Assembly (NCBI GenBank): GCA_903946745.1
Contig: CAJAWW010000011.1
Coordinates: forward strand, 2,368-66,367
DNA from: an uncultured beta proteobacterium
Lineage (GTDB): Bacteria; Pseudomonadota; Gammaproteobacteria; Burkholderiales; Rhodocyclaceae
Length of the DNA: 64,000 bases
Reading direction: 5' to 3'
Below are positions 40,016 to 57,430 of this stretch, one piece after another; the first letter of the stretch is position 1, and each line of letters starts with the position of its first letter. Below the pieces are notes generated by a model, which worked only from the letters and a program-made list of their open reading frames with translations, ran no database searches and had not been told where the DNA came from. The position numbers and the translations under genes were made by a program.

Positions 40016-41047
40016 GTGTCCGCCACCGCCCAGCCGGAATCTTTCAGAAAACCTGAACTCATCTGCCCCGCCGGCAGCCTGCCCGCACTCAAGGCTGCCA
40101 TCGACAACGGCGCGGATGCGGTATATCTCGGCTTCAAAAATGACACCAACGCACGCAACTTTTCCGGCCTCAATTTCGACCTGAAAACCATGGCCGAAGG
40201 CATCCGCTACGCGCAATCGCGTGGCCGTCAGGTGCTGCTGGCGCTCAACACCTATGCCCAAGCCGGGCGCGTGGCCGACTGGCGCAAGGCGGTCGATCAG
40301 GCCGTCGATCTGGGAGTCAATGCCATTATCCTGGCCGACGTCGGGCTGCTCGATTACGCCGCCAAAACCCATCCGCAGGCGCGTCTGCATCTATCGGTAC
40401 AAGGCTCGGCCACCAGCTATGAAGCCATCAATTTCGCCTATGAGATGTTCGGCGTGCGCCGCGCCGTGCTGCCGCGCGTGCTGACACTGGCGCAGGTGGA
40501 ACATGTCATCAAAAACACGCCTGTGGAGATCGAAGTCTTTGGCTTTGGCAGCCTGTGCGTCATGAACGAAGGCCGCTGCTGGCTGTCTTCTTACGCCTGC
40601 GGCGAATCTCCCAACACCGTCGGAGCGTGCTCGCCGGCCAAGTTCGTCAAGTGGGACAAACAGCCAGACGCGATGGAAGTGCGCTTGAACGGCATCCTCA
40701 TCGACCGTTTCGGCAACGACGAAAACGCCGGCTACCCGACCATCTGCAAAGGCCGCTTTGAAGTGGCAGGCGAAACCTACTACGCCATGGAAGAACCGGT
40801 GAGCCTCAACGTGGTCGAGTTGCTGCCGGAAATCATGCGCATTGGCGTGGCCGCCATCAAGGTCGAAGGCCGCCAGCGCAGCCCGGCGTATGTGACGCAG
40901 GTGACACGCGCGCTGCGTCAGGCCATCGATGCGGCGGCCGCCAACCCGGATCGCTTCGTCGTCAAGCCGCAATGGATGAGCGATCTGGCCAAAGTTTCCG
41001 AAGGTACGCAAGCCACGTTGGGTGCCTACAACCGGCCGTGGCGTTAA
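40016..41047 (+). CDS. ubiU: U32-family protein UbiU (O2-independent ubiquinone hydroxylation)
   Basis: 343 aa U32 peptidase-family sequence ([26 protein letters not shown]) with a Cys cluster ([18 protein letters not shown]...GACSP). Followed by ubiV and ubiT. Confidence 0.8.
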
Positions 41048-41060
41048 TCACCTGAAAATC

Positions 41061-41957
41061 ATGACCATGAAAATCGCACTGGGGCCGCTGCTGTTTTTCT
41101 GGAGCAAGGACGAAGTCTTCAATTTTTACGCCGAGATGGCGGAGAACCCGCAGATCGACCGCATCTATCTGGGCGAAGTGGTCTGCTCGCGCCGCCAGCA
41201 ACTGCGTACCGCAGACTGGCTCGGCCTCGCCCGCGACCTGCGCGAAGCCGGCAAAGATGTAGTGCTCGCCGCACAGGCGCTGCTGGAATCCGAAAGCGAT
41301 CTGAAAATGCTGCGCCGCCTGTTGGACGACAGCCAGTGCGTCGTCGAAGCCAACGATCTGGGTGCAGTCAAGATCGCCAAAGACAAAGGCATACCCTTTG
41401 TTTGCGGCCCGCATCTCAACCTTTACAACGAAGACACGCTGGCCTTTTATGCCACGCAAGGCGCCATCCGCTGGCTGCCGCCGCTTGAAGCCACCGGCGA
41501 ACTGGTGCGCCAGTTGCACGCCACGCGGCCGCCCGGCATGGAAACCGAAGTCTTCGCCTTCGGCAAAATCCCGTTGGCCTTCTCGGCGCGCTGTTTCACC
41601 GCCCGGCACTATGGACTGAACAAGGACGACTGCCAGTTCAAATGTCTCGACCATCCCGAAGGCATGCTGGTCAAAACCCGCGAACAGGAAAGTTTTTTGA
41701 CGCTGAACGGCATCCAGACCATGTCGGCACACAGCTACAACCTGCTAGCCGAAATGCCCGAGCTACTGGCACTGGGCATTGACGCGGTGCGCATCAGCCC
41801 GCAGCCAACCCATACCCCGGCCATCGTCGCCGCCTTTGCCGCCGCCCGTGATGGACAGAGCGCCCGCCCCGATCCGGCCTGGAACCCCGAAGGTCTGGTC
41901 AATGGCTTCTGGCACGGCAAGGCCGGCATCGTGCAGCAAGACGTGGAATTCGTCTGA
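41061..41957 (+). CDS. ubiV: U32-family protein UbiV
   Basis: [15 protein letters not shown]... is a short U32 homologue with the Cys pattern VVCSRR...[21 protein letters not shown]. Start at 41061 or 41067. Confidence 0.8.
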
Positions 41958-41998
41958 TCCGTCTATAAAATTCAAGAAAATATCAAGGAAAACCCGCC

Positions 41999-42499
41999 AT
42001 GAGCACCTTCATCATCCCGAAATTCGCCCTGCCCGGTTTTGTCGCCAAAATTGGCGCGCGCCTGCCGCAGTGGCCGCATGCGCTCTCACTCATCTGTGGT
42101 CTCAATCTCGTCCGCTCGCTTGGCATCCTGCCCGCTGAAACGCTGGCCGAAATCGACGGCCGCACGTTTCGGGTCACCGTGCTCGACACCGGTGCGGTGG
42201 CAACCTTCACCCTTCAGGGCGGCGTGTTCAAACCCGTTTTCGGCAAAGCTTCGCCAGACCTGCAATTCACCGCCAACCTCTCGGCCTACCTGCAACTGCT
42301 GGCACGGCAGGAAGACCCCGACACCCTGTTTTTCAATCGCCAGCTCACCATCGAAGGCGACACCGAACTCGGCCTGACGGTCAAAAACATGCTCGATGCG
42401 GTGGATTTTTCCACCCTGCGCGCCAGCCTCTCGCGCCTGCCCGGCTTCGCCCGCCTGCGCGACCACGGCGACAGCCATACTCAAACCAGCCCGGCGTGA
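41999..42499 (+). CDS. ubiT: SCP2-domain ubiquinone-biosynthesis accessory protein UbiT
   Basis: 166 aa SCP2-like (ANLSAYLQLLARQEDPDTLFFNRQLTIEGDTELGLTVKNMLD), third gene of the ubiUVT set. Confidence 0.75.
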   Translation: MSTFIIPKFALPGFVAKIGARLPQWPHALSLICGLNLVRSLGILPAETLAEIDGRTFRVTVLDTGAVATFTLQGGVFKPVFGKASPDLQFTANLSAYLQLLARQEDPDTLFFNRQLTIEGDTELGLTVKNMLDAVDFSTLRASLSRLPGFARLRDHGDSHTQTSPA

Positions 42500-42669
42500 T
42501 CGCCTCGCCCTGCATCGAAGTCTGCCGCACGGAAAACGGCCTGTGCACCGGCTGCTTGCGCACGCTGGATGAAATCACCGTCTGGAGTACGGCGGATGAT
42601 GCACAACGATTGCAGATTCTGGATGCCGTGAGACAGCGCCGCGCCACAAACACACTTGCCGCACATTAA
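42496..42669 (+). CDS. DUF1289-family small Cys-rich protein (below the ORF-track size threshold)
   Basis: 57 codons from the GTG at 42496 (GTGA overlap with the ubiT stop) to the TAA at 42667-42669: VIASPCIEVCRTENGLCTGCLRTLDEITVWSTADDAQRLQILDAV... The SPC-x3-C...G-x-C-x-GC-x-RT-x-DEI-x-x-W pattern is what I recognise as DUF1289. Confidence 0.65.
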   Translation: MIASPCIEVCRTENGLCTGCLRTLDEITVWSTADDAQRLQILDAVRQRRATNTLAAH

Positions 42670-42711
42670 CTTTCGCGCAACAATGCAGCGAACCTGCCAA
42701 GGAGAAGTTTC

Positions 42712-43116
42712 ATGCCCGCCCACTTTATGGCCACGCTACCGAATTTTCTTGCCTACTTTGGCGTCAGCATCGGCTTGCTGGGTCTGTTTCTGCTGGTCTA
42801 TGTCACGGTAACACCCTACAAAGAGTTCACGCTGATTCGCGGCGGCAACACGGCGGCGGCTATTTCACTGACGGGCACGATTCTCGGCTTTGCCCTGCCA
42901 GTCGCCAATGTGGTGGCGCATAGCGACACGCTGCTGGATCTGACGATGTGGGGTGCAGTGGCGGGCTGCGTGCAACTGGCCGCCTATTTTGCGGTGCGGC
43001 TGTTGCTGCCGCAACTCAACGATGACATTCCTGCCGGGCGCGTAGCCTCGGCGACCTTTCTCGCCGGGCTGTCGCTCGGCGTCGGCATCATCAATGCGGC
43101 CTGCATGACGTACTGA
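42712..43116 (+). CDS. DUF350 (YjfL-like) 4-TM membrane protein
   Basis: 134 aa with four hydrophobic helices and TPYKEFTLIRGGNTAAAISLTG, typical of DUF350. AGGAG Shine-Dalgarno sequence upstream. Confidence 0.8.
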   Translation: MPAHFMATLPNFLAYFGVSIGLLGLFLLVYVTVTPYKEFTLIRGGNTAAAISLTGTILGFALPVANVVAHSDTLLDLTMWGAVAGCVQLAAYFAVRLLLPQLNDDIPAGRVASATFLAGLSLGVGIINAACMTY

Positions 43117-43149
43117 AAAACCCCGGCACCACAATTCAAGGAGACGCAC

Positions 43150-44184
43150 ATGGCACTCATGGACTTCATCAAGAAACAATTTATTGACATCATCCAATGG
43201 ACAGAGGATGACGCGACCACCATGGCCTGGCGCTTTCCCATGGCCGAGATGGAAATTCAGAATGGTGCCAGCCTGACGGTGCGTGAATCGCAGATGGCAG
43301 TCTTCGTGAACGAAGGCCAGGTTGCCGATGTATTCGGCCCCGGTACGCACAAGCTGACAACACAGACGCTGCCGGTGCTGACCTATCTGAAAAACTGGGA
43401 CAAGCTCTTCGAATCCCCCTTCAAAAGCGATGTGTATTTTTTCAGCACGCGGCAAAAGCTTGATCGCAAGTGGGGCACCCCCAACCCGGTCACCATCCGC
43501 GACAAAGATTTCGGCATGGTACGGCTGCGTGCCTTCGGCATCTATGCCTTCCACCTGACCGACCCCAAGCTCTTTCACACCACAATTTCGGGCACGCTGG
43601 AGCGTTACTCCAGCGAGGAACTCGAAGGCCAGTTGCGCAACACCATCGTCGGCCACATTGCCGACATCTTCGGCGAATCCGGCGTGCCTTTTATCGACAT
43701 GGCCAGTAATCAGGAAGAATTCGGCAAGGCGCTGCGCGCCAAGGTCGAGCCAATGTTCCAGAGCTACGGGCTGGCGCTGGACAGCTTCAACGTGCAGAAC
43801 ATCTCGCTGCCCGAAGAACTACAAGCCATGCTCGACAAGCGCATCGGCGTGAATATGATGGGCGGCATGCAGGCTTACACGCAGTTCCAGACCGCCGAGG
43901 CGATTCCGCTGGCAGCGCAAAACGAAGGCGGGCTGGCCGGTTTGGGCGCAGGCATGGGGGTTGGTTTTGGCATGGGGCAACAGATCGCCGGCGCGATGTC
44001 CGGGGCACTGAATCCGGCCGCGGGTGTTGCGGGCTCTGCCCCCGCAGCCGCAGCCCCCGCAGCGCCCATTTCAGCCGACGATGTCGTGGGCACGCTCGAA
44101 AAGTTGCACGGGCTGGTGACCAAGGGCGTGCTATCGCAGGCTGAATTCGATGCCAAAAAAGCCGAGTTGCTGGGCAAGCTCTAA
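43150..44184 (+). CDS. SPFH/Band-7 superfamily protein (COG4260, YdjI-like) with Gly/Ala-rich linker and C-terminal SHOCT domain
   Basis: 344 aa. The N-terminus MALMDFIKKQFIDIIQWTEDD and the following beta-rich region match my memory of the YdjI-like SPFH family. The C-terminus DVVGTLEKLHGLVTKGVLSQAEFDAKKAELLGKL is a SHOCT-type motif. Confidence 0.8.
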   Translation: MALMDFIKKQFIDIIQWTEDDATTMAWRFPMAEMEIQNGASLTVRESQMAVFVNEGQVADVFGPGTHKLTTQTLPVLTYLKNWDKLFESPFKSDVYFFSTRQKLDRKWGTPNPVTIRDKDFGMVRLRAFGIYAFHLTDPKLFHTTISGTLERYSSEELEGQLRNTIVGHIADIFGESGVPFIDMASNQEEFGKALRAKVEPMFQSYGLALDSFNVQNISLPEELQAMLDKRIGVNMMGGMQAYTQFQTAEAIPLAAQNEGGLAGLGAGMGVGFGMGQQIAGAMSGALNPAAGVAGSAPAAAAPAAPISADDVVGTLEKLHGLVTKGVLSQAEFDAKKAELLGKL

Positions 44185-44238
44185 GCCACACTAAACCCCA
44201 CCTTAATTCACTAACTTTTCCACCAGCGGAGCCGGCTC

Positions 44239-46260
44239 TTGCCCTTTAGCGCCAACTGCCCGTCTTGCGGCGCGCCGGTCGAGTTCAAGTCGACCACGTC
44301 GTTCCATGCCGTGTGCGCGTTTTGCCAGAGCACGCTGGTGCGCCACGGCGGCAACCTCGAAAACCTCGGCCGCATGGCCGATCTGATCGAGGACACCTCG
44401 CCGATTCAGCTGGGTACCGAAGGCGTTTTCAAGGGCGTGCATTTCGCCGTGATCGGCCGCATTCAGCTGCGTTATGCCGCCGGGTTGTGGAACGAATGGT
44501 ATGTGCTGTTCGACGATCAACGCGGTGGCTGGTTGTCAGACGCCAACGGCGAATATGTCTTGAGCTTTCTGACGCCGCCTGAAATCACGCTGCCGGCCTA
44601 CGCTGAACTGGTGCCCGACACCTCGCTGACCCTGGCCGGGCGCGAATTCGTCGTCACCAACAAAGAAGCGGCCATGTGCATCGCTGGTGCCGGCGAACTG
44701 CCCTTTGCGTTTGGCTCGGGCTACCCGGCGGAACTGGTGGATCTGCGCGCCACCGATGGTTCCGGTTCGTTTGCCAGCATCGATTATTCGGAAACACCGC
44801 CGCTGTTTTTCGTCGGCGTGTCGCTGCCCTTTGCCAGCTTCAAGTTTGCCAATCTGCGCGCCGGCACCGAAGCAAAAAAAGTTTCAGGTTCAGTGAAGGC
44901 GCTGCAATGCCCCGCCTGCGGCGGTGCGATTGCACTGCACGATCCGGCCGTGCAAAGCGTGGCCTGCCCGTCGTGCCTGGGGATTCTCGATGTCGAAAAC
45001 GAAAACCTGCGCCTGATCGCCAAAGTCAATGCCGCCATGTGGCTGGAGCCACGCATCCCGCTGGGCAGCACCGGCCGCTTTGAAAATCTCGACTGGACGC
45101 TGATCGGCTTTCAGCAGCGTTGCATCGTCAGCGAGGGCATCAATTATCTGTGGCATGAATACCTGTTGCAGCATCCGCAAGAGGGCTTCCGCTGGCTGAT
45201 CGAGTCCGACGGGCACTGGTCGTTGGCGCGCGTGCTGACATCGCCGCCACGCTCTACCCTTGGCATGCCGACGGCGTTGCTTGGCGGAGAAACCTTCACC
45301 CGCTTTAGCGCCGGCATGGCCGAAACACGCTATGTGATTGGCGAATTCACCTGGAAAGTACGCATCGGTGAAACCTGGGAAACCACCGATTTCATCGCCC
45401 CGCCACGCATGCTCTCACGCGAAGCCAGTGAGGGCGAAACCAGCTGGTCAATCGCAGAGTATCTGAGCCCGGAAGCGGTTACCGCCGCCTTTCAACTGCC
45501 CAACCCGTTGCCGGCACCGGTCAGTGTCGGCGCGATCCAGCCCAACCCACGGCTGGAAAATCATCGCAGTGTGTGCAGCTATTTCTGGAAATTTTTTCTG
45601 GCAGTAACCGTGATGCATCTGCTGTGGGTGTTTGTGCTGGGCGGCAACACGCTGCTGGAACAGCGACTGGTGTACTCGCCCACGCAAGCAGAATCACAGA
45701 AAACCAACAGTTTTACGCTCACCAGCCCAACCCGCTCACTCGTCGTGGAACACCAGACCGACATCAATAACAACTGGGTGGGGCTGGGGCATGCACTGGT
45801 GGAACAAAATTCCGGCAAGGTCTGGATCGCACAACCCGAGCTGTCTTACTGGCAGGGGGTGGAGGGCGGCGAAAGCTGGAGCGAGGGCAGCAAAAGCACG
45901 GAACTGGGCTTTAAGGACCTGCCTGCCGGTACCTACTATTTTGTGCTCGACCCGGAACTATCAAACGAAAACCCGGCCAGCGTGGCCGACCGCATCAAGG
46001 TAGTGCGTAACCCGGTGGCCTGGAGCAACTATATTCTGCTGACAATTTTTCTCGCCATCTTCCCCTTGCTGACGCTTTACCGCAAAGGCTCGTTCGAGAC
46101 CGCACGCTGGCAATCAGCTGATTTCACCCGCACGGGCGAAGCTGAAAGCATCGTCAGCAACGCTGACAGCGATTCCGACAGCGACGCTGACATTGAATAT
46201 GATGGTGACTCCGGTAGTGACTCCGGTAGTGACTCGGGCAGCAGCGGAGGCAACGACTGA
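44239..46260 (+). CDS. Large Zn-ribbon / triple DUF4178-like / 2-TM membrane protein with acidic Asp/Ser-rich tail
   Basis: 673 aa from a TTG start (GGAG 7 nt upstream; in-frame stop at 44212). Two CxxC...CxxC ribbons (CPSCG...CAFCQ, CPACG...CPSCLG). Three W-x-E-[WY]-x-L style beta modules (LWNEWYVLFDD, LWHEYLLQHP, FTWKVRIGETWE). TM helices near residues 445-470 and 595-615. Tail ADSDSDSDADIEYDGDSGSDSGSDSGSSGG. Confidence 0.75.
   Translation: MPFSANCPSCGAPVEFKSTTSFHAVCAFCQSTLVRHGGNLENLGRMADLIEDTSPIQLGTEGVFKGVHFAVIGRIQLRYAAGLWNEWYVLFDDQRGGWLSDANGEYVLSFLTPPEITLPAYAELVPDTSLTLAGREFVVTNKEAAMCIAGAGELPFAFGSGYPAELVDLRATDGSGSFASIDYSETPPLFFVGVSLPFASFKFANLRAGTEAKKVSGSVKALQCPACGGAIALHDPAVQSVACPSCLGILDVENENLRLIAKVNAAMWLEPRIPLGSTGRFENLDWTLIGFQQRCIVSEGINYLWHEYLLQHPQEGFRWLIESDGHWSLARVLTSPPRSTLGMPTALLGGETFTRFSAGMAETRYVIGEFTWKVRIGETWETTDFIAPPRMLSREASEGETSWSIAEYLSPEAVTAAFQLPNPLPAPVSVGAIQPNPRLENHRSVCSYFWKFFLAVTVMHLLWVFVLGGNTLLEQRLVYSPTQAESQKTNSFTLTSPTRSLVVEHQTDINNNWVGLGHALVEQNSGKVWIAQPELSYWQGVEGGESWSEGSKSTELGFKDLPAGTYYFVLDPELSNENPASVADRIKVVRNPVAWSNYILLTIFLAIFPLLTLYRKGSFETARWQSADFTRTGEAESIVSNADSDSDSDADIEYDGDSGSDSGSDSGSSGGND
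46205..46240. repeat. 12-bp tandem repeat gtgactccggta x2 plus one degenerate copy, encoding the (DSGS)n tail
   Basis: Read directly: 46205-46216 equals 46217-46228, and 46229-46240 differs at 2 positions. Confidence 0.85.
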
Positions 46261-46406
46261 TGCCACGGATTTTTCTGATTGCCGGCCTGCTGGGCATCGG
46301 TTTTTTCAACTACGCCCAATACACGGGCTGGAGCCTGTTCTCCGAAGAATCGCAAGCGCAACCGGTGCGTTCCGCCAACGCCGCGCGCAGCCTGTACCAC
46401 AAGTAA
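46260..46406 (+). CDS. Candidate 48-aa single-TM microprotein (below the ORF-track size threshold)
   Basis: The ATG at 46260 shares its A with the TGA of the upstream gene (TGATG), with GGAGG 9 nt upstream. MPRIFLIAGLLGIGFFNYAQYTGWSLFSEESQAQPVRSANAARSLYHK has one clear hydrophobic helix. It ends 30 nt before the next gene. Confidence 0.4.
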   Translation: MPRIFLIAGLLGIGFFNYAQYTGWSLFSEESQAQPVRSANAARSLYHK

Positions 46407-46436
46407 TCACAAGTAGCCCGTAGCACCAATCACCGC

Positions 46437-47939
46437 ATGCACGCTCCCCTGCTGGTTTCAGTCTTTATCGTCGCCTCGTGCGGGCTGGCCTATGAGCTGA
46501 TCGCCGGCGCACTCGCGAGCTATTTGCTGGGCGATTCGGTCACGCAATTTTCCACAATCATCGGCACGTATCTCTTCGCCATGGGCATCGGCTCGTGGTT
46601 GTCACGCCATATCGGTGGCGATTTGCTGCGGCGTTTCATTCAGATCGAACTGCTGGTCGGTCTGCTCGGTGGCATTTCGGCCGGGCTGCTGTTTTTGTTA
46701 TTCACCCTGCACGCCGGGCCGTTCGGACTGATGCTGTATGGACTGGTGATGCTGATCGGCATTCTGGTCGGCCTCGAAATTCCGCTCATCATGCGCATTC
46801 TCAAGGGCGAGGTAGCGTTCAAGGATCTGGTCGCGCAGGTGTTGTCCTTCGATTACATCGGCGCGCTGGCAGTGTCGCTGCTGTTCCCGCTGGTGCTGGC
46901 ACCACATCTTGGACTGGTCAGAAGCGCGCTGCTGTTCGGCCTGCTCAATGCGCTGGTGGCCGCCTGGGCATTGATGCTGTTCCGCACGCGCATCGGCAAT
47001 GTGCGCGGTTTGCAGGTGCAATGCGCGGCGGTGATCGCCGCGCTGGTCATCGGCTTTGCGCTGGCCGGCCGCTTCGTCAGTCTCGCCGAAGCCAACCTCT
47101 ATGCCGAAGACATCGTGCATGCCGAATCCAGCCCCTATCAGCGCATCGTCGTCACCCGCTGGCGCGACGAAACGCGGCTTTACCTCAACCACAATCTGCA
47201 ATTCAGTTCGCGCGACGAATACCGTTACCACGAAGCGCTGGTGCATCCGGGGCTGGCCGCCCTGCCCGGCGCACGCCGCGTGCTGGTGCTGGGCGGCGGC
47301 GATGGCATGGCGGTGCGCGAAATCCTCAAATACCCGCAGGTCGAACACATTACGCTGGTCGATCTCGACCCGCGCATGACAGAAATTTTCCGCACTTCGC
47401 CGCTGTTGCGCCCACTCAACGGTGATGCGCTGCATTCCCCCAAGCTCACCATCGTCACCGCCGACGCCCTGCAATGGCTGGAAGCCTCCAGCGAACAATT
47501 CGATTTCGTGGTGGCAGATTTTCCAGACCCCTCCAGCCATGGCCTCGGCAAGCTCTACTCAACCGCTTTCTATCGCCTGCTGGCGCAGCATGTGTCGGCC
47601 ACGGGCATGATCGTAGTGCAGGCCACTTCGCCGATGTATGCGCGTGAATCATTCTGGACAGTCGTTACCACGCTCGAAGCCGCCGGCTGGCAGACCGCGC
47701 CGTATCACGCGCTGGTGCCCAGTTTCGGCGAATGGGGTTACATCATCGCCGGCCATCGCGGCTACCAGATGCCAAAAACTGTTCCCGTGCCGACCCGATT
47801 TGTGACGCCCGACGCACTGCCCGCGCTGTTTCATTTTCCTGCCGACATGGCGCGAGTGCCCGCCGAACCCAATCGCCTCGACAACCAGAATCTGGTGCGG
47901 GTGTTCGAGCGTGAATGGGGTCGCCTGCAAGGCCACTGA
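46437..47939 (+). CDS. speE: Membrane-embedded polyamine aminopropyltransferase (about 7 TM helices + spermidine-synthase fold)
   Basis: 500 aa. The N-terminal 200 residues are polytopic membrane. The C-terminal domain has YQRIVV, YHEALVHP, VLVLGGGDGMAVREI and the DFPDP motif of spermidine/spermine synthases. Confidence 0.85.
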   Translation: MHAPLLVSVFIVASCGLAYELIAGALASYLLGDSVTQFSTIIGTYLFAMGIGSWLSRHIGGDLLRRFIQIELLVGLLGGISAGLLFLLFTLHAGPFGLMLYGLVMLIGILVGLEIPLIMRILKGEVAFKDLVAQVLSFDYIGALAVSLLFPLVLAPHLGLVRSALLFGLLNALVAAWALMLFRTRIGNVRGLQVQCAAVIAALVIGFALAGRFVSLAEANLYAEDIVHAESSPYQRIVVTRWRDETRLYLNHNLQFSSRDEYRYHEALVHPGLAALPGARRVLVLGGGDGMAVREILKYPQVEHITLVDLDPRMTEIFRTSPLLRPLNGDALHSPKLTIVTADALQWLEASSEQFDFVVADFPDPSSHGLGKLYSTAFYRLLAQHVSATGMIVVQATSPMYARESFWTVVTTLEAAGWQTAPYHALVPSFGEWGYIIAGHRGYQMPKTVPVPTRFVTPDALPALFHFPADMARVPAEPNRLDNQNLVRVFEREWGRLQGH

Positions 47940-49564
47940 TGCAGCGCCGCGAATTTCTGCTCGGCGCATCGATGGCCGCCTTACTGAATGCTTGCGGCCA
48001 GCCGGCGGGTTTTTCATCCAAACCACCGCTGCCCCCCGGAACGCTGACCGAACCCGCACGCCTGCTCGGCCATCGACTGCGCCAGAAGGATTTTCCTGCC
48101 CCGACAGAAACCCGTCGCGTCGCTGTAGTCATTGCCGGGGGCGGCATCGGCGGTCTTTCAGCAAGTTGGCGGCTCCAGCATGCCGGCTGCGATGATTTTT
48201 TGTTGCTGGAGATGGAAAGCAGCGTCGGCGGCAATTCGCGTGCGGGTAGCAATGCGGTCGCGCCCTACCCGCTCGGCGCGCATTACCTGCCGCTGCCGCC
48301 GCCCGAAGCCCGCGCCGTGCGCCGCCTGCTGCGTGAATTGAATGTGCTGAAGCCTGACGGCCAGTACGATGAAGCCTATCTCTGCCATGCCCCGCAAGAG
48401 CGGCTCTACCGCGACGGCTACTGGCACGACGGCCTGTTGCCCAGCCTTGGCCTCGGTGCCAGCGAGCGCGCCGAGCATGCGCGCTTTCACGACCAGATTG
48501 CTGAACTGCGTAGCACCCGCGACCACGCCGGCCGGCGGCCTTTTGCCTTGCCCATGGCACTATCCAGCCGCGAGGCTGCATGGCGGGCGACTGATCGCAG
48601 CAACTTTCGCGACTGGTTGCTCCAAAACGGCTACACCTCCCCTGCCCTGCACTGGCTGGCTGATTACGCCTGCCGCGACGACTACGGCACCCGCGCGGCC
48701 GAAACCTCGGCATGGGCGGGGCTGCACTATTTTTCCTGCCGCGAAGGCGAAGGCCAGGTGCTCACCACGCCGGGCGGCAATGCGTGGCTAACCGACGGGC
48801 TAAAACAAGGGCTAAAACAAGGCATGGAAGGCACACGATCAGCGCAACTGCAAGCCGATGCGGTGCTCTGGCGCGTTACCGAAACACGCCATCAGGTGGC
48901 CTGCGATGTGTATCTCGCCGCCGAAAACCGCAGCATCCGGATACTGGCACGCGAACTGATCTGGGCGGCACCGCTGTTCCTGATCCCACACGTCTTCGTG
49001 CCCCCCCGCCCGGAATGGCTGGCGGCACTGGCAGGTATTGAATATGCCCCCTGGGTGGTGGTCAATCTCACGCTTTCTGCCCCGCCCGAAACCCGCGCCG
49101 GGGTACCGCTGGCCTGGGACAACGTGCTCTACGACAGCCCGGCACTGGGCTATGTGGTCGCCACCCACCAGCAACTGCGCTATGCCCCGGCACCGACCGT
49201 CATCACCTGGTATCGCGCCCTGCATGAAGAATCCGTGCGCAGCCCGGCCACCCCGCTGTTGCAAATGGATCGCGCCGCATGGGCCGAGGCGGCATTGCGC
49301 GATCTCGAACGCGCACATCCTGAAATCCGTCAGACGGCCACCCGCATCGACGTCCATCGCCACGCCCATGCCATGATCCGACCCCGCCCCGGCAGCCTGT
49401 GGGATGGCCGGCGTGAGGTCTTTACCCGCAACCATGGCCGGGTGCGGTTCGCACATGCCGATGTCTCCGGCTTCTCCTTGTTCGAGGAAGCCAATCATCG
49501 CGGGGTGCTGGCCGCAGAGCGCACACTGACCCGGCTCGGGGTATCCTTCAACACATTCCTGTAA
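47939..49564 (+). CDS. Tat-signal, lipobox-like FAD-dependent oxidoreductase (flavin amine-oxidase-like)
   Basis: MQRREFLLGASMAALLNACG has a twin-arginine motif plus LNAC-type Cys. VAVVIAGGGIGGLSASWRL is a dinucleotide-binding GxGxxG, followed by E-x5-GGN. TGATG overlap with the aminopropyltransferase stop. Confidence 0.8.
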   Translation: MQRREFLLGASMAALLNACGQPAGFSSKPPLPPGTLTEPARLLGHRLRQKDFPAPTETRRVAVVIAGGGIGGLSASWRLQHAGCDDFLLLEMESSVGGNSRAGSNAVAPYPLGAHYLPLPPPEARAVRRLLRELNVLKPDGQYDEAYLCHAPQERLYRDGYWHDGLLPSLGLGASERAEHARFHDQIAELRSTRDHAGRRPFALPMALSSREAAWRATDRSNFRDWLLQNGYTSPALHWLADYACRDDYGTRAAETSAWAGLHYFSCREGEGQVLTTPGGNAWLTDGLKQGLKQGMEGTRSAQLQADAVLWRVTETRHQVACDVYLAAENRSIRILARELIWAAPLFLIPHVFVPPRPEWLAALAGIEYAPWVVVNLTLSAPPETRAGVPLAWDNVLYDSPALGYVVATHQQLRYAPAPTVITWYRALHEESVRSPATPLLQMDRAAWAEAALRDLERAHPEIRQTATRIDVHRHAHAMIRPRPGSLWDGRREVFTRNHGRVRFAHADVSGFSLFEEANHRGVLAAERTLTRLGVSFNTFL

Positions 49565-49569
49565 TCGCT

Positions 49570-49956
49570 TTGAACACCATGAACGGATTGCACATCCTCG
49601 CCGAGCTTCATGACTGCCGCTGCCCCCCTGCCCTGTTGCGCGAGGCTACGGCGCTGGCGACCTTGTGCCGGGGCGCATGCAAGGCCGCCGGACTGACCGT
49701 GGTGGCCGAGGCTTTTCATCAGTTTGCCGGCGCTGGCGCTACCGGCGCGGTAATTCTTGCCGAGTCACATCTGGCCATCCACACCTGGCCCGAATTGAAC
49801 AGCGCCACCTTCGATCTCTACGTCTGCAATTTCAGCCAGGACAACCGCGCCGCCGCCGAATCGGTTTATGACGCGCTGCGTGCTGCCCTGCAACCCGCTG
49901 ACGTGGCTCGCCGCGATGTTGTGCGCGGCACCCTGCACGCAGGAATAACAGCATGA
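49570..49956 (+). CDS. speH: Small pyruvoyl-dependent S-adenosylmethionine decarboxylase proenzyme (class 1, SpeH/SpeD type)
   Basis: 128 aa. VILAESHLAIHTWPE is the self-cleavage (Glu65-Ser66, Ser codon at 49765-49767) and active-site motif of class 1 AdoMetDC. Confidence 0.8.
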   Translation: MNTMNGLHILAELHDCRCPPALLREATALATLCRGACKAAGLTVVAEAFHQFAGAGATGAVILAESHLAIHTWPELNSATFDLYVCNFSQDNRAAAESVYDALRAALQPADVARRDVVRGTLHAGITA

Positions 49957-51809
49957 CGATTACTCAGGAAGCCTCTCGCGTTCGCCGGCCATTAAGTCTG
50001 AAAATATTCGGCATCGTCGCCGGCTTGTTGAGCTTGATGATTCTGGTGACGCTGATGTCGTCAATCAGTTTGCGACGCGTCGGACAACAACTCGATTTTC
50101 TGGTCAAGTTCTACATTCAGGTCGATCAGAAAATGGGCGATCTGCGCAGCTACGGCTTGTCTGAACTGATCCTGATCGAACGGATTTTGCAAAACCGTCC
50201 GACCCTGAGCTGGGATGCTGCCAAAGCGGAAGCCGACAAGCGACAAAAGGAGGTCGGTGAATGCACGTTCGAAACATTGCGCCCCGCCAATGCCAGCATC
50301 CGCAAGGCCTTCGTTAATCCTGCCGATAGTCAGGCCGTCCGCTTCGAACTGCTGAAACGCTGTGCTGCAGACAAACTGGCACGCGTCGAGCAACTGGTCG
50401 ATACCGCACTGGCTTCCGAGTTTGTCAGGCAAGATGCAGAAAAGGTGGCACGACTGGCCACGATTCGCCAAGCATTGAAGGACGTCCAGCCGGCACGCGC
50501 CCGGATGCACGCCACCTTTCAGCAGTATCTTGAGCAGTTGGCGACCCGTGACCCACGCGCCATCGCCTTGGTGCGCAGCGAGTTGGAAGAAAACCGCTCA
50601 ACATTGGGACGCAAGATCTCCGACATCACCAATCAGGTGCACGAAGGCACCCGGCTTTCAGGTGCCACCGCCTACGATCTAGAACAGCGCGTGCAGTGGA
50701 TGAGTTGGGCGATCACGCTGGTCGCGTGTCTGCTCGGACTGATCGTCGCCACCATTCTGACCAAAAGCCTGGTCAGCCCTTTGCGCGAACTGCTGTCCGG
50801 AACACGCGCCATTGAAGAGGGCAACCTGGATATCCAGATCAAGGTATCCACCTCCGATGAGCTCGAAAGACTGGGCGACTCCTTCAATCACATGGTGCGC
50901 GAACTGCGGCAAAAAGAAGAAATCAAAACCATGTTCGGCAAGTATGTCGACCCGCGTGTCGTCCAGGGCTTGCTCGATCGCAGCACCATTGGCAATGACG
51001 GCGACCGCCGGCGCATGACGGTGTTTTTTTCTGATCTGGAAGACTTCACCAAGATCAGCGAACAAATGACACCGGGCAGCGTGGTGCGCTTGCTGAATCA
51101 CTACTTTACCGTCGTCGCAGAACCGATCCGCGCCAGCAACGGCATTATCGACAAATACATCGGCGATTCGGTCATGGCATTCTGGGGGCCGCCGTTTACA
51201 CAGGAGACCGACCATGCCGTACTGGCGTGCTACGCCGTGCTCGATCAGCAAGCGCGGATTCCGCAATTTCAGGCGGCGCTGCCGGACATTCTCGGCGTGC
51301 GTACCGGCGTGCCGAAAATCAATGTTCGCATGGCGCTGGCGACGGGCGATGTCACCATCGGCAGCATTGGCTCCGAAGATGCAAAGAGCTACACGGTGAT
51401 TGGTGACACGGTCAATCTTGCCTCGCGACTGGAGAGCGTGAACAAACTGTTCGGTACCAACATCATCATCAGCGAAAACACCCGCACGCTCGCTGGCGAC
51501 GCAATCGAAACCCGCGAACTGGATAACATCCGGGTCGCCGGCAAACTTGAGCCAATCCGTATTTATGAATTGCTCGCCCGCAAGGGACAGGCCGCACCCC
51601 GCATGATGGAACTACGCGACAGCTTCGAGCAGGCGCTGGGGTTCTATCGCCAGCAACAGTGGGACGAAGCACAGGCCGCACTGAATCGATGCCTGCAGAT
51701 CAATGCGCACGATGGTCCATCGCTCGTCTTGCAAAAACGCATCGGGCAATTCCGCAACACCCCGCCGGCAGTGGATTGGGACGGTAGCTGGACGATGGTC
51801 AGCAAATAG
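49953..51809 (+). CDS. Membrane-bound class III adenylate/guanylate cyclase (TM-sensor-TM-HAMP-CYCc-helical C-terminus)
   Basis: 618 aa. HAMP (LVSPLRELLSGTRAIEEGNLD...DELERLGDSFNHMVRELR) and a cyclase core (MTVFFSDLEDFTKISE, IDKYIGDSVMAFWG, YTVIGDTVNLASRLES). ATGA overlap with the AdoMetDC stop. Confidence 0.9.
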   Translation: MTITQEASRVRRPLSLKIFGIVAGLLSLMILVTLMSSISLRRVGQQLDFLVKFYIQVDQKMGDLRSYGLSELILIERILQNRPTLSWDAAKAEADKRQKEVGECTFETLRPANASIRKAFVNPADSQAVRFELLKRCAADKLARVEQLVDTALASEFVRQDAEKVARLATIRQALKDVQPARARMHATFQQYLEQLATRDPRAIALVRSELEENRSTLGRKISDITNQVHEGTRLSGATAYDLEQRVQWMSWAITLVACLLGLIVATILTKSLVSPLRELLSGTRAIEEGNLDIQIKVSTSDELERLGDSFNHMVRELRQKEEIKTMFGKYVDPRVVQGLLDRSTIGNDGDRRRMTVFFSDLEDFTKISEQMTPGSVVRLLNHYFTVVAEPIRASNGIIDKYIGDSVMAFWGPPFTQETDHAVLACYAVLDQQARIPQFQAALPDILGVRTGVPKINVRMALATGDVTIGSIGSEDAKSYTVIGDTVNLASRLESVNKLFGTNIIISENTRTLAGDAIETRELDNIRVAGKLEPIRIYELLARKGQAAPRMMELRDSFEQALGFYRQQQWDEAQAALNRCLQINAHDGPSLVLQKRIGQFRNTPPAVDWDGSWTMVSK

Positions 51810-51825
51810 GTGCTTGCTCAACCGC

Positions 51826-52299
51826 ATGGTTAGCCGTCGACAATTCATCCAAGGAAATTTCAAAGCCGGGACACCTCCACAACGTCCGCCCTGGGCGCTG
51901 ACCGAAGAGGCCTTCCTTGATGCCTGCTCGCGTTGTGGCGACTGCATTACGGCCTGTCCGACACACATCATTGTCGTAACGCGCGGCTATCCGGTGGTGG
52001 ATTTCAGTCGCGGTGAGTGCACTTTCTGTGGTGACTGTGCCAATGCCTGCAAAGATGGCGCATTGCGGCGCGGCGAGAATCAGGGGGCACCGTGGTCAAT
52101 CAAGGCGCACATCGCCGAAAGCTGTCTGGCGCAACAAGCCGTTGAATGCCGGATCTGTGGCGATCCCTGTCCGGTATCCGCCATCCGGTTCAAACCACGC
52201 ATCGGCAAGCCGCCGCTGGCCGATGTCGATCTCAATACCTGCACGGGGTGCGGCGCTTGCGTCGCCCCCTGCCCGACAGCGGCGATCAGCGTGGCGTAG
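51826..52299 (+). CDS. napF: Ferredoxin-type protein NapF
   Basis: 157 aa with four Cys clusters (CSRCGDCITACP, CTFCGDCANAC, CRICGDPCP, CTGCGACVAPCP) and a Tat-like SRRQFI N-terminus. Start trimmed to the ATG at 51826, 16 nt after the cyclase stop. Confidence 0.8.
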   Translation: MVSRRQFIQGNFKAGTPPQRPPWALTEEAFLDACSRCGDCITACPTHIIVVTRGYPVVDFSRGECTFCGDCANACKDGALRRGENQGAPWSIKAHIAESCLAQQAVECRICGDPCPVSAIRFKPRIGKPPLADVDLNTCTGCGACVAPCPTAAISVA

Positions 52300-52305
52300 C
52301 GCCTG

Positions 52306-52327
52306 GCACCGCCGTTGCGCGCGGTGC
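52306..52327. terminator. Possible bidirectional hairpin between convergent napF and napB
   Basis: gcaccgc (52306-52312) / gcggtgc (52321-52327) form a 7-bp stem with an 8-nt loop. Only a weak T-rich stretch follows. Confidence 0.3.
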
Positions 52328-52329
52328 GA

Positions 52330-52761
52330 TTATTTGATGTCGCCGACGAATCGATTCTCGACCAGCGCTGGCGCATCAACCTGTGGCACATGGCAACTTA
52401 CGCAGACATGGCGCGCGGCATCGAATTCTTTGGTGGCCGCAATAAAATGGCTATCGCCCAACTTGGGTGAGTTCTTTTTTGCATAGTTGTCCGGGCCATG
52501 GCAACTCATGCACTGGTTTTCGGTAACGGTCAGTTCATCGTAGTTATTCACTGCATGCGGAATCACCGGCGGCTGCTGGGCATAAGTGCGCGCCACCAGC
52601 GGTTGCGTGCCCGGCCGTTTGCCCACGTAGTCTTTGGCGCTCGGTGGCTGATCTTGCGCGGCAACATCGCTACCGCGCATCGACACCAGTGGTTCATAGC
52701 TGGCACAACCGACAATGACAGTCAGCAACGATGCCAGCAGGACAAGGACAGATTTTTTCAT
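52330..52761 (-). CDS. napB: Periplasmic nitrate reductase dihaem cytochrome c subunit
   Basis: 143 aa with a signal peptide plus Cys (LLTVIVGCAS) and two CxxCH haem motifs (CMSCH, CVSCH). Confidence 0.9.
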   Translation of the reverse strand: MKKSVLVLLASLLTVIVGCASYEPLVSMRGSDVAAQDQPPSAKDYVGKRPGTQPLVARTYAQQPPVIPHAVNNYDELTVTENQCMSCHGPDNYAKKNSPKLGDSHFIAATKEFDAARHVCVSCHVPQVDAPALVENRFVGDIK

Positions 52762-52792
52762 GATGAACTCCCCAGACGAAATTGAATGTTAA

Positions 52793-53698
52793 TCACTTTG
52801 GCGTCACTTGCGAGACGCCGGCTACTGTTGCGACAGAATGGTTAAAACGGGTGCCAAAGACAAAAACATCTTTCGAGCAGACATCGATGCAGCGGCCACA
52901 ATTGGTGCAGTTGGCCTCCAGTATCAATGGCGGCGTGCCTCCGATGGCTTTCAGTGCCGGCCGGATGACCTGTGGCTCCGGACAGACCGCGAAGCAATCC
53001 ATGCAGTCGTTGCAGGCGGTGCGCAAGGGCAAACGGATACGCGTCAGCGACCACTTGCCGATCAGGCTGTAGAACGCACCAACCGGGCACAAATGGCCAC
53101 ACCAGCCGTGGCGCATGACAAACAGATCGAAGAGCCACACGGCCAGCAATACGGCCCAAGCCAGCCCGAAACCGAAAAACAACCCGCGATGCATCATCGA
53201 AACCGGATTGACCATCTCCCAGACGATGCTGCCGGTGACGGCTGCGGCCACCAGCGTCATGCCCAGTATCCAGTAACGTGTTTGCCGGCTGATGTGCGCG
53301 CTGCCCTTGATGCCCAGCCGCACGCGCAGCCAGTAGGCGGCATCGGTGAGTAAATTGACCGGGCAAACCCACGAACAAAAGCTGCGCCCGCCGACCAGCA
53401 GATAAAAAACGGTCACGATGAGCACGCCTGTCAGCGCCATTTTGTCCGACACATGCCCGGCCAGAAGCGATTGCAAAATGATGTAGGGATCGGTCAGCGG
53501 CAGGATGTTCAGGGTGTGACTGAAACTCAAGTTGCCCTTGACGATCCACCAGCCGAACCATGGCCCGACCAGAAACAGCAGCAAAATGCCGATCTGGCTG
53601 CTGCGCCGCAAAATCAACCAACGATGCGCCCCCAGCCAGCCTTTTGTGATGACGGCCTCGGCACCCGGCTGCAATAGTTGTTTCGAATTTGCGCTCAC
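52793..53698 (-). CDS. napH: Quinol dehydrogenase membrane ferredoxin subunit NapH
   Basis: 301 aa with four TM helices, CxxCP motifs ([15 protein letters not shown]) and C-terminal 4Fe-4S motifs ([23 protein letters not shown]). Confidence 0.9.
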
Positions 53699-54570
53699 AG
53701 CTTGTTACCCTGCAATGCTTTAGGTAATCCATTCGCTGGAGCAGGCGCAGGTGCAGGTGCAGCAGAAACACCGGGGGGCTGAACCGGCATGGGTGAGAGA
53801 CCTTTGCCGTGCTCATACTTCATCCCCTCGGGCATGTTGTATTGATGCGCGGCGTCGGGGGCGACCAGACTGCCCCCGGCTTTCTCTTTCTCGACCCATC
53901 CCAGCCGGTAATGTGCGCTCAGTTGCCCCTTGGCCATGGTGAGCGGGAATACCTTGATCGATGCAACTTCCGTGGGGCAGGCTTTCTCGCATTTTCCGCA
54001 CCCGGTGCATTGATCGGAATGCACCACCGGAATAAACAGGGTGTGCTTGCCGGTACGCGTGTTGGTTTGCGGATCGAGCGTGATGGCCTTGTCGATCACC
54101 GGGCAAACGCGATAACAAATGTCGCAGCGCAAACCCAGAAAATTGAGACAGGTTTCGTGGTCGACCAGCACCGCCAAACCCATCTTTGCCTTGTTGATAT
54201 CCTTGAGTGAATGATCCAGTGCGCCCGTCGGGCAGGCTTTCACGCACGGAATGTCCTCGCACATTTCGCAGGGCAACTGGCGCGCAACGAAGTACGGCGT
54301 GCCGGTCGACAGTGGTTCTTCGGGTTTGGCCAGATGCAGGATGTTGAATGGGCAATCGCGCACGCACATCCCGCAGCGGATACACGCAGCAGAAAAGTCT
54401 GCTTCGGCCAGCGCGCCGGGCGGCCGAATCGCGGCAGGTGGCAAAGCCCTGGCGTGCCGCGCATACAACCCGACCCCCAGCCCCAGCAAGCCGACGCCAC
54501 AAGCCATACGAGCGGTATCGGCAAAAAACTGGCGACGGGCTGCCGTACTGGGCGTGTTCTCGTTGTCCAT
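53695..54570 (-). CDS. napG: Periplasmic ferredoxin-type subunit NapG
   Basis: 291 aa with a Tat signal (RRQFFADT) and four 4Fe-4S motifs ([47 protein letters not shown]). Confidence 0.9.
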
Positions 54571-54630
54571 GTGGTCTATCCGGGGAATGCTGCATGCTCA
54601 TGACATCCATACCTTCCCCGGTGCATCCAA

Positions 54631-57180: not shown

Positions 57181-57181
57181 T

Positions 57182-57430
57182 TCAGATCTCCTTGTTTGGC
57201 TCAGATTCGGTTTGGTGATAGACCATGGCCGCTGACATGACACAGTCAAGCTGACCAATGTGTTGGTATGTCGCGGAATTGCTGCCCTCGTCGTCGGTTT
57301 CAATCGTGACGATCAATATGCCCTCGGCCGAGACAGCATGTACCTCGACACCGGCCAGTGTCGCCAGCGCAGCCTGAACGTCCGGCAAATACCCGGGACG
57401 GGCGTGGACAATGGCGCTAGAGATATTCAT
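57182..57430 (-). CDS. napD: NapA chaperone NapD
   Basis: 82 aa from [13 protein letters not shown]...[19 protein letters not shown], the typical NapD ferredoxin-like fold sequence. It stops 1 nt before the napA start. Confidence 0.8.

Follow-up and report, generated by a model that had tools for sequence, protein, structure and literature searches.

An SPFH-type, PspA-free variant of a widespread envelope operon with a membrane-fused aminopropyltransferase and a lysine-ended microprotein as candidate acceptor

Many bacteria encode an S-adenosylmethionine decarboxylase (AdoMetDC) together with a membrane-fused spermidine-synthase-like protein. Clusters of AdoMetDC, a membrane-SpdSyn-like fusion and DUF350 were described by Li, Kurihara, Kim, Liang and Michael (Biochem J 2019); as related by papers that cite this work, the enzyme pair has a role outside spermidine and spermine synthesis, and the substrate was left open. 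In their comparative study, Ravi et al. (mSystems 2024; PMC11237479) report operons of CesT/Tir-PspA with a 7TM-spermine-synthase, DUF350, a lipoprotein and DUF4178, as well as a PspA-free Band-7/2TM/SHOCT variant with AdoMetDC and polyamine oxidase, for which they propose, from comparison only, polyamine-level monitoring or “aminopropylation of other substrates.” Here, we analyze a 64,000-nucleotide stretch of DNA from an uncultured Rhodocyclaceae bacterium (contig CAJAWW010000011.1; hereafter the window), in which positions 42712-51809 hold an SPFH-type, PspA-free variant of this widespread envelope system. The operon type is already known from comparative genomics, as an earlier note on this DNA had believed.

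Gene content of the locus and its described relatives

The locus consists of eight co-directional open reading frames (ORFs) on the + strand, named g1 to g8 (aa, amino acids; TM, transmembrane):

42712..43116, + strand, g1: DUF350 (YjfL-like), 4-TM inner-membrane protein, 134 aa
43150..44184, + strand, g2: YdjI-like Band_7_1 SPFH protein with a Gly/Ala-rich segment and a C-terminal SHOCT, 344 aa
44239..46260, + strand, g3: two copies of Zn ribbon plus DUF4178, then TM, periplasmic domain, TM and acidic tail, 673 aa, TTG start
46260..46406, + strand, g4: 48-aa microprotein MPRIFLIAGLLGIGFFNYAQYTGWSLFSEESQAQPVRSANAARSLYHK, candidate aminopropyl acceptor
46437..47939, + strand, g5: 7-TM domain fused to an aminopropyltransferase domain, 500 aa
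47939..49564, + strand, g6: flavin amine oxidase with twin-arginine signal and lipobox, 541 aa
49579..49956, + strand, g7: class 1b pyruvoyl S-adenosylmethionine decarboxylase proenzyme, 125 aa
49953..51809, + strand, g8: two TM segments, a periplasmic domain of ~215 aa, HAMP and class III nucleotidyl cyclase, 618 aa

The core of the system is a 7TM-aminopropyltransferase, AdoMetDC, DUF350, DUF4178 and a dedicated tail protein exposing a C-terminal Lys. Our leading proposal, held tentatively and at somewhat less than even confidence, is that g5 aminopropylates the C-terminal Lys of g4 in the periplasm using decarboxylated AdoMet (dcAdoMet) made by g7, that g6 edits the product, and that g1, g2 and g3 organize or gate the complex.

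The earlier note had listed these eight consecutive genes from the sequence, and the ORFs are real, with intergenic distances of 33, 54, -1, 30, -1, 14 and -4 nucleotides (nt) in order. A scan of 42300-52400 for promoters and terminators gave counts no higher than shuffled sequence, so the operon structure of g1-g8 is deduced from gene spacing alone. All of the note's domain calls (SPFH, SHOCT, DUF4178, DUF350, Spermine_synth, oxidase, AdoMet_dc and cyclase) hold by Pfam, that of SHOCT marginally. Its complete pair of aminopropyl donor and transferase is borne out as well, with g7 and g5 both above the cut-offs of their NCBIfam models (TIGR03330 and NF002956), and so are the Tat and lipobox signals of g6, which are present in the N-terminus read from 47939.

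Every component of the PspA-free variant of Ravi et al. is present in the window and co-conserved in the 80 loci described below, SHOCT being marginally under its cut-off. In that variant, a Band-7 protein with a C-terminal membrane segment and SHOCT takes the place of the CesT/Tir-PspA dyad and is accompanied, as here, by DUF350, AdoMetDC and polyamine oxidase, and the 7TM-spermine-synthase and DUF4178 of the window are found in related groups of the same authors. The window differs in adding a lineage-specific HAMP-cyclase gene, and the available text of Ravi et al. makes no mention of a microprotein, a C-terminal Lys or an extracytoplasmic orientation of the enzyme. The module was said to lack PspA, and indeed no Pfam match to PspA was found among the eight proteins, nor within ~6-10 kb of the module on L001, a near-identical metagenome contig that shares the locus including g8; the search covered the locus neighborhood. 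Thus, the PspA/IM30 gene that defines a classical Psp system is absent from the locus.

Three further systems invite comparison. The pspA-ydjGHI operon of B. subtilis, likewise a membrane-stress operon, encodes a YdjI-like SPFH protein of the Band_7_1 family along with a membrane protein bearing Zn ribbons, but it differs in its PspA, in a TPM-domain YdjH and in a YdjG with Zn ribbons plus an NTF2-like domain (PMC11237479), and it has no polyamine-type enzymes. Neither TPM nor PspA has a Pfam match among the eight window proteins. The mapping onto ydjG-ydjH-ydjI made in the earlier note consequently stands for the YdjI-like Band_7_1 protein and not for DUF4178, which neither YdjG nor YdjH represents. 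The yjfIJKLMC cluster of E. coli resembles the window in linking DUF350 (YjfL) to a polyamine-peptide-conjugating enzyme, YjfC, which is a peptide-spermidine ligase (Pederick et al., Biochemistry 2023; “peptide--spermidine ligase” in RefSeq). Unlike the window, that cluster has the PspA homolog YjfJ, the CesT-like YjfI and DUF2491, and is without SPFH, DUF4178, AdoMetDC and oxidase; YjfC, unlike g5, belongs to the ATP-grasp ligases, works in the cytoplasm and targets a carboxylate. The P. aeruginosa pair PA4773-PA4774 (speD2-speE2) shares a class 1b AdoMetDC, a second aminopropyltransferase and a link to envelope protection, but PA4774 is soluble, has no 7TM domain, and is a thermospermine synthase making free polyamine (PMC11107197). 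By description only, and within the part of that source available, DUF350, DUF4178, SPFH and a Lys-tail protein are not described with PA4773-PA4774. Set against the canonical SpeD/SpeE pathway, g7 appears from its sequence to be a fitting class 1b AdoMetDC proenzyme, and g5 does not fit a soluble cytoplasmic aminopropyltransferase.

Conservation of the module and of its lysine-ended proteins

Using g3 as bait and one genome per species, 102 relatives were obtained and 80 loci kept, and the presence of each gene was counted by tblastn of the window proteins against these 80 distinct-species loci. g2 was found in 74 (49-85% identical), g5 in 72, g6 in 66, g7 in 60 and the 4TM g1 in 65. Many of the misses are truncated contigs, and most loci without the 4TM g1 hold a 2TM half-size DUF350. 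The seven genes g1-g7 recur together in 80+ genomes of at least six major lineages (Beta-, Gamma- and Alphaproteobacteria, Bdellovibrionales, Obscuribacterales and Gemmatimonadota), and their association is far above chance. The nearest g3 relatives (64-68% identity) belong to Rhodocyclales and point to a Sulfuritalea-like source of the window; other loci come from Gallionella, Sulfuriferula, Usitatibacter, Methylococcaceae, Competibacter and Steroidobacteraceae, and from Ralstonia, Cupriavidus, Janthinobacterium, Massilia, Noviherbaspirillum, Neisseria, Stenotrophomonas and Noviluteimonas. When plasmids were searched by tblastn with g5, this gene set also turned up in Novosphingobium (Alphaproteobacteria) and Gemmatirosa (Gemmatimonadota).

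Co-occurrence in other genomes holds for the seven genes and fails for the cyclase. No match to g8 was found by tblastn in any of the 80 loci, the sole counterpart lying on L001, and g8 is therefore a lineage-specific addition. As a consequence, the “cyclic-nucleotide output” of the earlier note applies in this lineage and is not part of the conserved module, and g8 as a general output of the system was rejected.

The loci follow two layouts, one colinear as in the window and one divergent, in which g5 and then g6 are read in one direction and g1-g2-g3-g4-g7 in the other. Many colinear loci carry a 71-aa 2TM half-size DUF350 between g4 and g5. Clustering of all other neighboring ORFs gave no further family common to more than 10 of the 80 loci, and thus no hidden PspA or other partner. 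On the megaplasmid of R. pseudosolanacearum GMI1000 (L085, 1648365-1667867), only g5-g6 are found, directly preceded by an IS630-like transposase ORF. Within the R. solanacearum complex, unlike in the R. pickettii group, the module thus seems broken or split, and this locus was set aside as a test of conservation.

The most informative gene of the module is g4, which the earlier note had listed without comment, because its C-terminal His-Lys is invariant. Its start overlaps the stop of g3 (ATGA), and a GGAGG lies 9 nt upstream. In the encoded protein, an Arg at the N-terminal end precedes a single hydrophobic segment, either a signal peptide or an anchor, and the polar tail behind it finishes in His-Lys. 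A script found a g4-like ORF right after g3 in 74 of 79 usable loci, and three of its five misses (L003, L010 and L041) were regained by eye from the ORF listing, so that an equivalent of g4 follows g3 in essentially every locus. Among 79 g4 sequences (75 distinct), the last two residues are His-Lys in 79/79. These sequences further share one or two N-terminal basic residues, a hydrophobic segment and a tail 17-54 residues long with a mean Gly+Ser content of 55%; in the sequence itself, nothing besides the His-Lys end is conserved. As background, 0.47% of the ORF segments of at least 40 aa in the loci end in HK, and most of these are the g4 genes themselves. This near-universal microprotein after the DUF4178 gene, with its fixed His-Lys end, is new here.

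Six diverse g4 microproteins searched against Pfam and NCBIfam at E <= 10 matched no family. Seven of the g4 sequences occur in public protein collections with an identical start, under names such as “hypothetical,” “Serin-rich transmembrane protein” and “lipoprotein.” That g4 is a chance ORF was considered and rejected, given its ~79/79 conservation, the Shine-Dalgarno sequence, the start/stop coupling with g3 and the independent public gene calls. Because the C-terminal Lys is the only invariant feature while the rest of the sequence drifts, g4 is proposed as the aminopropyl acceptor.

A second lysine-ended family came from distant operons of the same enzyme family. With an Alteromonas enzyme (32% identical to g5) as query, combined with context look-ups, we found eight TelA-type operons, in Alteromonas, Arcobacter, Magnetococcales, Oleispira and Paracoccaceae among others. 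In these operons a small TM/coiled-coil protein comes first, then TelA, DUF4178, in some cases DUF2617, a protein of ~510-570 aa, an 8TM DUF350 and the TM-aminopropyltransferase, followed sometimes by a K+ channel and sometimes by AdoMetDC. The ~510-570-aa protein has no Pfam domain, a lipoprotein or signal-anchor N-terminus and a basic Gly/Ser-rich tail, and it ends in RG(R/K)GPxx(G/S)GK in 8/8 TelA-type loci; a Gly-Lys end was found in no other gene examined of these operons. This GK-ending lipoprotein is likewise new here. In L087-L093 and L082, TelA (PF05816) and the TM/coiled-coil protein (~170 aa) fill the slot of SPFH, and the K+ channel is made of Ion_trans_2 plus TrkA_N. The cytoplasmic scaffold slot thus appears to vary, being taken by SPFH, TelA or PspA.

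Smaller variants were also observed. On a plasmid of Ensifer sp. PDNC004 (L083, 10533-15649), a minimal set holds speD, an 8TM DUF350, a 2TM beta-rich protein, a GK-tail small protein and the TM-aminopropyltransferase; the small protein, a 78-aa TM protein ending in ...GGGPESGK, is encoded directly before the enzyme gene. This minimal variant adjoins an agmatinase-like gene and a potFGHI-like putrescine ABC transporter. A tblastn search of the plasmid collection with the Ensifer enzyme gave no new operon variants. The Gemmatirosa microprotein ends in ...RFRHGK, not HK. Actinobacteria have a variant with DUF4247 and DUF2617, M. tuberculosis Rv2597-Rv2601 being an example.

The microprotein and the lipoprotein belong to two unrelated families, both tied to the same enzyme; being exported, having a flexible tail and ending in Lys are all that they have in common. 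This bears on whether the Lys-terminated protein might not be a substrate at all, and instead a pseudo-substrate plug, a subunit stabilizing the 7TM domain, or a peptidoglycan tether like Braun's lipoprotein, with some other molecule as the true acceptor. Many bacterial microproteins are regulatory subunits of membrane proteins, and Braun's lipoprotein joins peptidoglycan through the epsilon-amine of a C-terminal Lys; moreover, g4 is translationally coupled to g3 and not to g5. A microprotein of ~50 aa and a lipoprotein of ~540 aa with nothing in common except a flexible tail and a terminal Lys nevertheless fit a substrate determinant better than a structural interface, and the 80-locus clustering found no L,D-transpeptidase or other conserved partner in the neighborhood. 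A non-substrate role is, in our estimate, improbable.

A tail of similar composition occurs in the E. coli cluster. YjfM, a DUF1190 lipoprotein encoded beside YjfC (L094, E. coli K-12 NC_000913.3, 4412387-4413025), has a Gly/Ser/Arg/Trp/Tyr-rich end, ...RGGYGRSSSARGHWGG, close in composition to the microprotein tails; it ends in ...GHWGG, however, without a terminal Lys. By analogy, YjfM could be the physiological substrate of YjfC.

The membrane aminopropyltransferase, its partners and its surroundings

Behind a hydrophobic N-terminal half, g5 carries a Spermine_synth domain (Pfam, 4e-36). It belongs to NF002956/PRK03612, the membrane-fused polyamine aminopropyltransferases, scoring 679.4 bits against a cut-off of 472 over residues 3-496, and falls under the cut-offs of the soluble SpeE models of NCBIfam. 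It is also below the cut-off of NF037959 MFS_SpdSyn (“fused MFS/spermidine synthase”; 32.7 vs. 40 bits), which makes its orthology to the proteins of Li et al. uncertain. At least 8000 relatives of g5 were found at E <= 1e-10. The AlphaFold model (pLDDT 83.4) has seven TM helices followed by a SpdSyn fold, and the nearest solved structures to the catalytic domain in Foldseek are Thermus SpeE (1uir) and plant thermospermine synthase (6bq2), enzymes that take acceptors larger than putrescine, which counts for a protein-borne acceptor.

The GGGDG and D(F/L)PDP motifs of g5 are invariant in 68/68 homologs and in 118/118 of the distant, TelA-type ones. The acidic residue of GxG(D/E)G separates aminopropyltransferases that use dcAdoMet from methyltransferases (bioRxiv 10.1101/2022.10.03.510680). 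Since the Asp of GGGDG is kept and AdoMetDC is co-encoded, g5 is predicted to be an aminopropyltransferase and not a methyltransferase. A described protein of the same architecture is NHMT of A. nidulans (AN4663), in which seven TM helices extend to about residue 215 and precede a SpdSyn-like domain, and which methylates the N-terminal His of secreted lytic polysaccharide monooxygenases in the endoplasmic reticulum (ER) (bioRxiv 10.1101/2022.10.03.510680). NHMT and g5 are alike in this 7TM plus SpdSyn-fold architecture and, by the prediction for g5 given below, in having the SpdSyn-fold domain on the lumenal or periplasmic side, which are topologically equivalent. They differ in that Ile replaces the acidic residue of GxG(D/E)G in NHMT, which transfers the methyl group of S-adenosylmethionine to an N-terminal His, whereas g5 keeps the Asp, is co-encoded with AdoMetDC and has a C-terminal Lys as its proposed target. 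According to the Michael laboratory, the only non-fungal homologs of a 594-aa membrane-aminopropyltransferase fusion of Pyricularia oryzae, which has this architecture too, are these bacterial fusions; we assume that this fusion and AN4663 are orthologous.

The placement of the catalytic domain was examined through loop charges. Over the 68 homologs, mean Lys+Arg counts are 1.07 at the N-terminus and 2.57, 3.07 and 2.75 in loops 2-3, 4-5 and 6-7, and on the opposite side 0.00, 0.01 and 0.40 in loops 1-2, 3-4 and 5-6. The 118 distant homologs have the same loop pattern. This very strong positive-inside signal (N-in), together with seven helices, predicts that the catalytic domain of g5 lies outside the cytoplasm and faces the periplasm. 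Such an extracytoplasmic placement, on the same side as the Tat-exported oxidase, is a prediction new to this work and one that the earlier note had not made. The donor would then be made inside; outside, by prediction, would lie the transferase domain together with the oxidase and, g4 being N-in, its tail.

An enzyme so placed might act on a lipid. Aminopropylation of a lipid or lipopolysaccharide (LPS) amine (e.g., phosphatidylethanolamine, or a phosphoethanolamine or aminoarabinose decoration) at the outer face of the inner membrane, which would render the envelope more cationic, with the scaffolds handling lipid domains, would suit a layout of membrane enzyme and periplasmic catalytic domain as in EptA, ArnT and MprF. 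The enzyme is repeatedly coupled to membrane-stress scaffolds, and the residues E20, E71, E114, R120, D139 and N171, membrane-embedded and kept in both homolog sets (68 and 118), could bind a head group. No positive evidence points to a lipid, however; protein termini are the targets of the fungal enzyme that shares this architecture, YjfC of the sister operon works on peptides, and the C-terminal Lys proteins and the dedicated amine oxidase would be left unexplained. We consider a lipid or LPS acceptor improbable.

A soluble product has somewhat more in its favor. A free polyamine might be made at or outside the inner membrane from putrescine, 1,3-diaminopropane or spermidine, be remodeled by the oxidase (e.g., from thermospermine to norspermidine) and coat the anionic envelope, as has been proposed for PA4773-PA4774, with the microprotein as an accessory. 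Indeed, g5 retains all catalytic and dcAdoMet-binding residues of genuine aminopropyltransferases, its top structural matches are a thermospermine synthase and a Thermus polyamine aminopropyltransferase, the flavin domain of g6 is polyamine-oxidase-like, and the Ensifer variant adjoins agmatinase and potFGHI-like genes. Oxidation of thermospermine to norspermidine by an as yet unnamed oxidase has been suggested in P. aeruginosa (PMC11107197). Against this, the Michael laboratory reports that bacterial membrane-aminopropyltransferase fusions are uninvolved in spermidine or spermine synthesis. A freely diffusing periplasmic product would leak out through porins, and Lys-terminated tail proteins in two unrelated families would be left without an explanation. 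Betaproteobacteria classically hold putrescine and 2-hydroxyputrescine, not spermidine, which also counts against a free product. Species with clusters of this kind reportedly have no spermidine, and the fusion is said not to complement an E. coli speE mutant. The earlier note had favored a polyamine made or remodeled at the membrane; with the homologs reported as uninvolved in such synthesis, this becomes the less likely reading, and we regard it as unlikely when set beside aminopropylation of g4.

In Pfam, g6 matches Amino_oxidase (3.5e-13) and NAD_binding_8 (2.9e-10), and its likeliest start at 47939, MQRREFLLGASMAALLNAC, gives a twin-arginine motif and a lipobox. This ATG overlaps the stop of g5, and gene calling on L001 settled on it too; translation could also begin further upstream, from an ATG at 47915. 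RR(S/D/E/R)F(L/M) occurs in most of the 64 listed N-termini of g6 homologs, of which 35 were flagged by script, and a lipobox Cys in 12. Against solved structures, g6 has a weak match (E 0.004), limited to the FAD-binding N-terminus, to maize polyamine oxidase 1b37. g7 matches AdoMet_dc (Pfam, 1.4e-28) and TIGR03330 (88.2 bits, cut-off 75.65), belongs to the Bacillus-type class 1b AdoMetDC family of NCBIfam and contains the self-processing motif ...LAESHLAIHTWPE (ESH). A TTG at 49570 is an alternative start that would give 128 aa. No signal peptide or TM segment was found in g7 by sequence scan, and it is predicted to be cytoplasmic.

The cyclase g8 has HAMP (3.9e-14) and Guanylate_cyc (2.3e-19) domains in Pfam and is translationally coupled to g7 in the window by a 4-nt overlap. 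In PADLOC, g8 matched PycC and g5 a methyltransferase model, both at fold level only; the other six proteins had no match, and no effector was found. Anti-phage defense, including Pycsar, was rejected on this ground.

Among the scaffold genes, g1 matches PF03994 (DUF350) over its full length (3.7e-38) and has four hydrophobic segments. DUF350 proteins of these operons come as 2TM (71 aa), 4TM (134 aa, the size of g1) and 8TM forms (~280 aa, in the TelA-type and Ensifer operons), with small DUF350 ORFs at L005 8497-8712, L008 12096-12323, L084 8679-8891 and L086 8690-8899; the three sizes suggest an oligomer built from a 2TM unit. g2 matches Band_7_1 (5.3e-80) and Band_7 (1.5e-18), its SHOCT domain (5e-6, 26.5 bits) lies just below the cut-off of 27, and a hydropathy scan made no TM call in the Gly/Ala-rich segment between Band_7_1 and SHOCT. 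On plasmid 1 of Gemmatirosa kalamazoonensis (L084, 5118-6131), the SPFH protein has a Zn-ribbon tail (CINCG...CSECG), not SHOCT, like B. subtilis YdjI.

For g3, Pfam finds DUF4178 (6e-32) over two stretches and weak Zn-ribbon matches at residues 5-32 and 223-250. Two TM segments (449-467 and 593-611) enclose a beta-rich periplasmic domain of ~125 aa, and an acidic Asp/Ser tail follows. The TTG start is supported by the N-terminus MPFSANCPxCG, which is invariant across 32 homologs. In all, 1634 relatives of g3 were found; a short form of ~420-470 aa with a TM hairpin at its end occurs in Ralstonia, Janthinobacterium and Massilia. The AlphaFold model of g3, from an alignment of 32 sequences, was too poor for a fold search (pLDDT 53, pTM 0.34). 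The acidic Asp/Ser repeat tail …SDSDSDSDADIEYDGDSGSDSGSDSGSSGGND (window 46050-46260) ends a protein of 673 aa, as compared with 681 aa in L001 (7779-9824), and this length gap between otherwise identical contigs suggests that the GAC/AGC-type repeat is length-variable.

The genes around the locus were also noted. Directly upstream, 40016-42499 holds two Peptidase_U32 genes and an SCP2 gene (Pfam domains), an order that we take to be the ubiU/ubiV/ubiT arrangement of O2-independent ubiquinone synthesis; neighbor clustering of the 80 loci shows that these genes are not kept beside the module in other genomes. Between the SCP2 gene, whose end it overlaps, and g1, 43 nt further downstream, sits a 57-aa Cys-rich DUF1289 ORF (42496-42669; Pfam E 7e-19). 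Downstream (51703-57303), a NapF-like poly-ferredoxin gene on the + strand, with a likely start within or just past the end of g8, precedes napB, napH, napG and napA, which lie on the - strand. With its ubiUVT-like and nap genes, the setting around an operon that holds an O2-dependent oxidase is thus one of anaerobic respiration.

A proposed mechanism and its meaning

Under aminopropylation of g4, dcAdoMet would be produced by g7 in the cytoplasm, and the 7TM domain of g5, with its invariant membrane-embedded acidic residues, would pass or present this cationic donor to the periplasmic catalytic domain. One or more aminopropyl groups would be placed onto the epsilon-amine of the C-terminal Lys of g4, whose flexible tail would be periplasmic, and the product would be a membrane-tethered or secreted peptide-polyamine conjugate. 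The Tat-exported g6 may then trim or remove the modification. At the cytoplasmic face, g2, g3 (coupled to g4) and DUF350 might organize or gate the machine, as PspA or TelA may do in the sister operons, and the cyclase g8 would be a local add-on. The physiological output is probably modulation of envelope charge or stress protection. That the acceptor is a protein terminus is supported by NHMT, which modifies protein termini, and by YjfC, a peptide-spermidine ligase.

Several points weigh against this proposal. Protein aminopropylation as suggested for g4 is argued by analogy; we know of no bacterial precedent for it by an enzyme of the spermidine-synthase fold, and a literature search found nothing relevant on protein aminopropylation or C-terminal-lysine modification tied to this system. 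Periplasmic catalysis would need dcAdoMet to cross the membrane, and to our knowledge no such transport has been described. The predicted topology of g5 derives from charge statistics and a model. Canonical enzymes use the second Asp of D-x-P-D-P to bind a diamine at its distal amine, and the retention of this Asp in g5 is what would be expected for a free diamine or polyamine acceptor; the position of the Ensifer variant beside agmatinase and a putrescine ABC transporter is likewise a hint of free polyamine chemistry. The extension to GK tails draws on ~10 loci, and the roles given to SPFH, DUF4178, DUF350 and the oxidase are guesses from context.

A broader reading, which we offer more tentatively still, is that extracytoplasmic lysine modification by the 7TM-aminopropyltransferase is common to the family: an aminopropyl or longer chain would be placed on the HK-microprotein in SPFH-type operons and on the GK-lipoprotein in TelA-type operons, the oxidase would act as eraser or editor, and YjfC/YjfM would be a convergent, ligase-based version.

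Were the proposal wrong, the locus would still be a well-delimited, broadly conserved and uncharacterized envelope operon. Opportunists and plant pathogens also carry the system, among them Ralstonia, Stenotrophomonas and Burkholderia cenocepacia, and envelope and antimicrobial-peptide phenotypes are therefore plausible. The co-encoded Lys-ended protein gives a concrete substrate hypothesis for the AdoMetDC/transferase pair. If it is true, periplasmic lysine aminopropylation would be a new protein modification, its products would form a family of protein-polyamine conjugates, the “polyamine-independent role of AdoMetDC” would gain its missing substrate, and dcAdoMet would have to cross the membrane. 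It would also tie the SPFH, TelA and PspA membrane-stress scaffolds to a biochemical output and provide a rationale for the peptide-spermidine ligases of E. coli.

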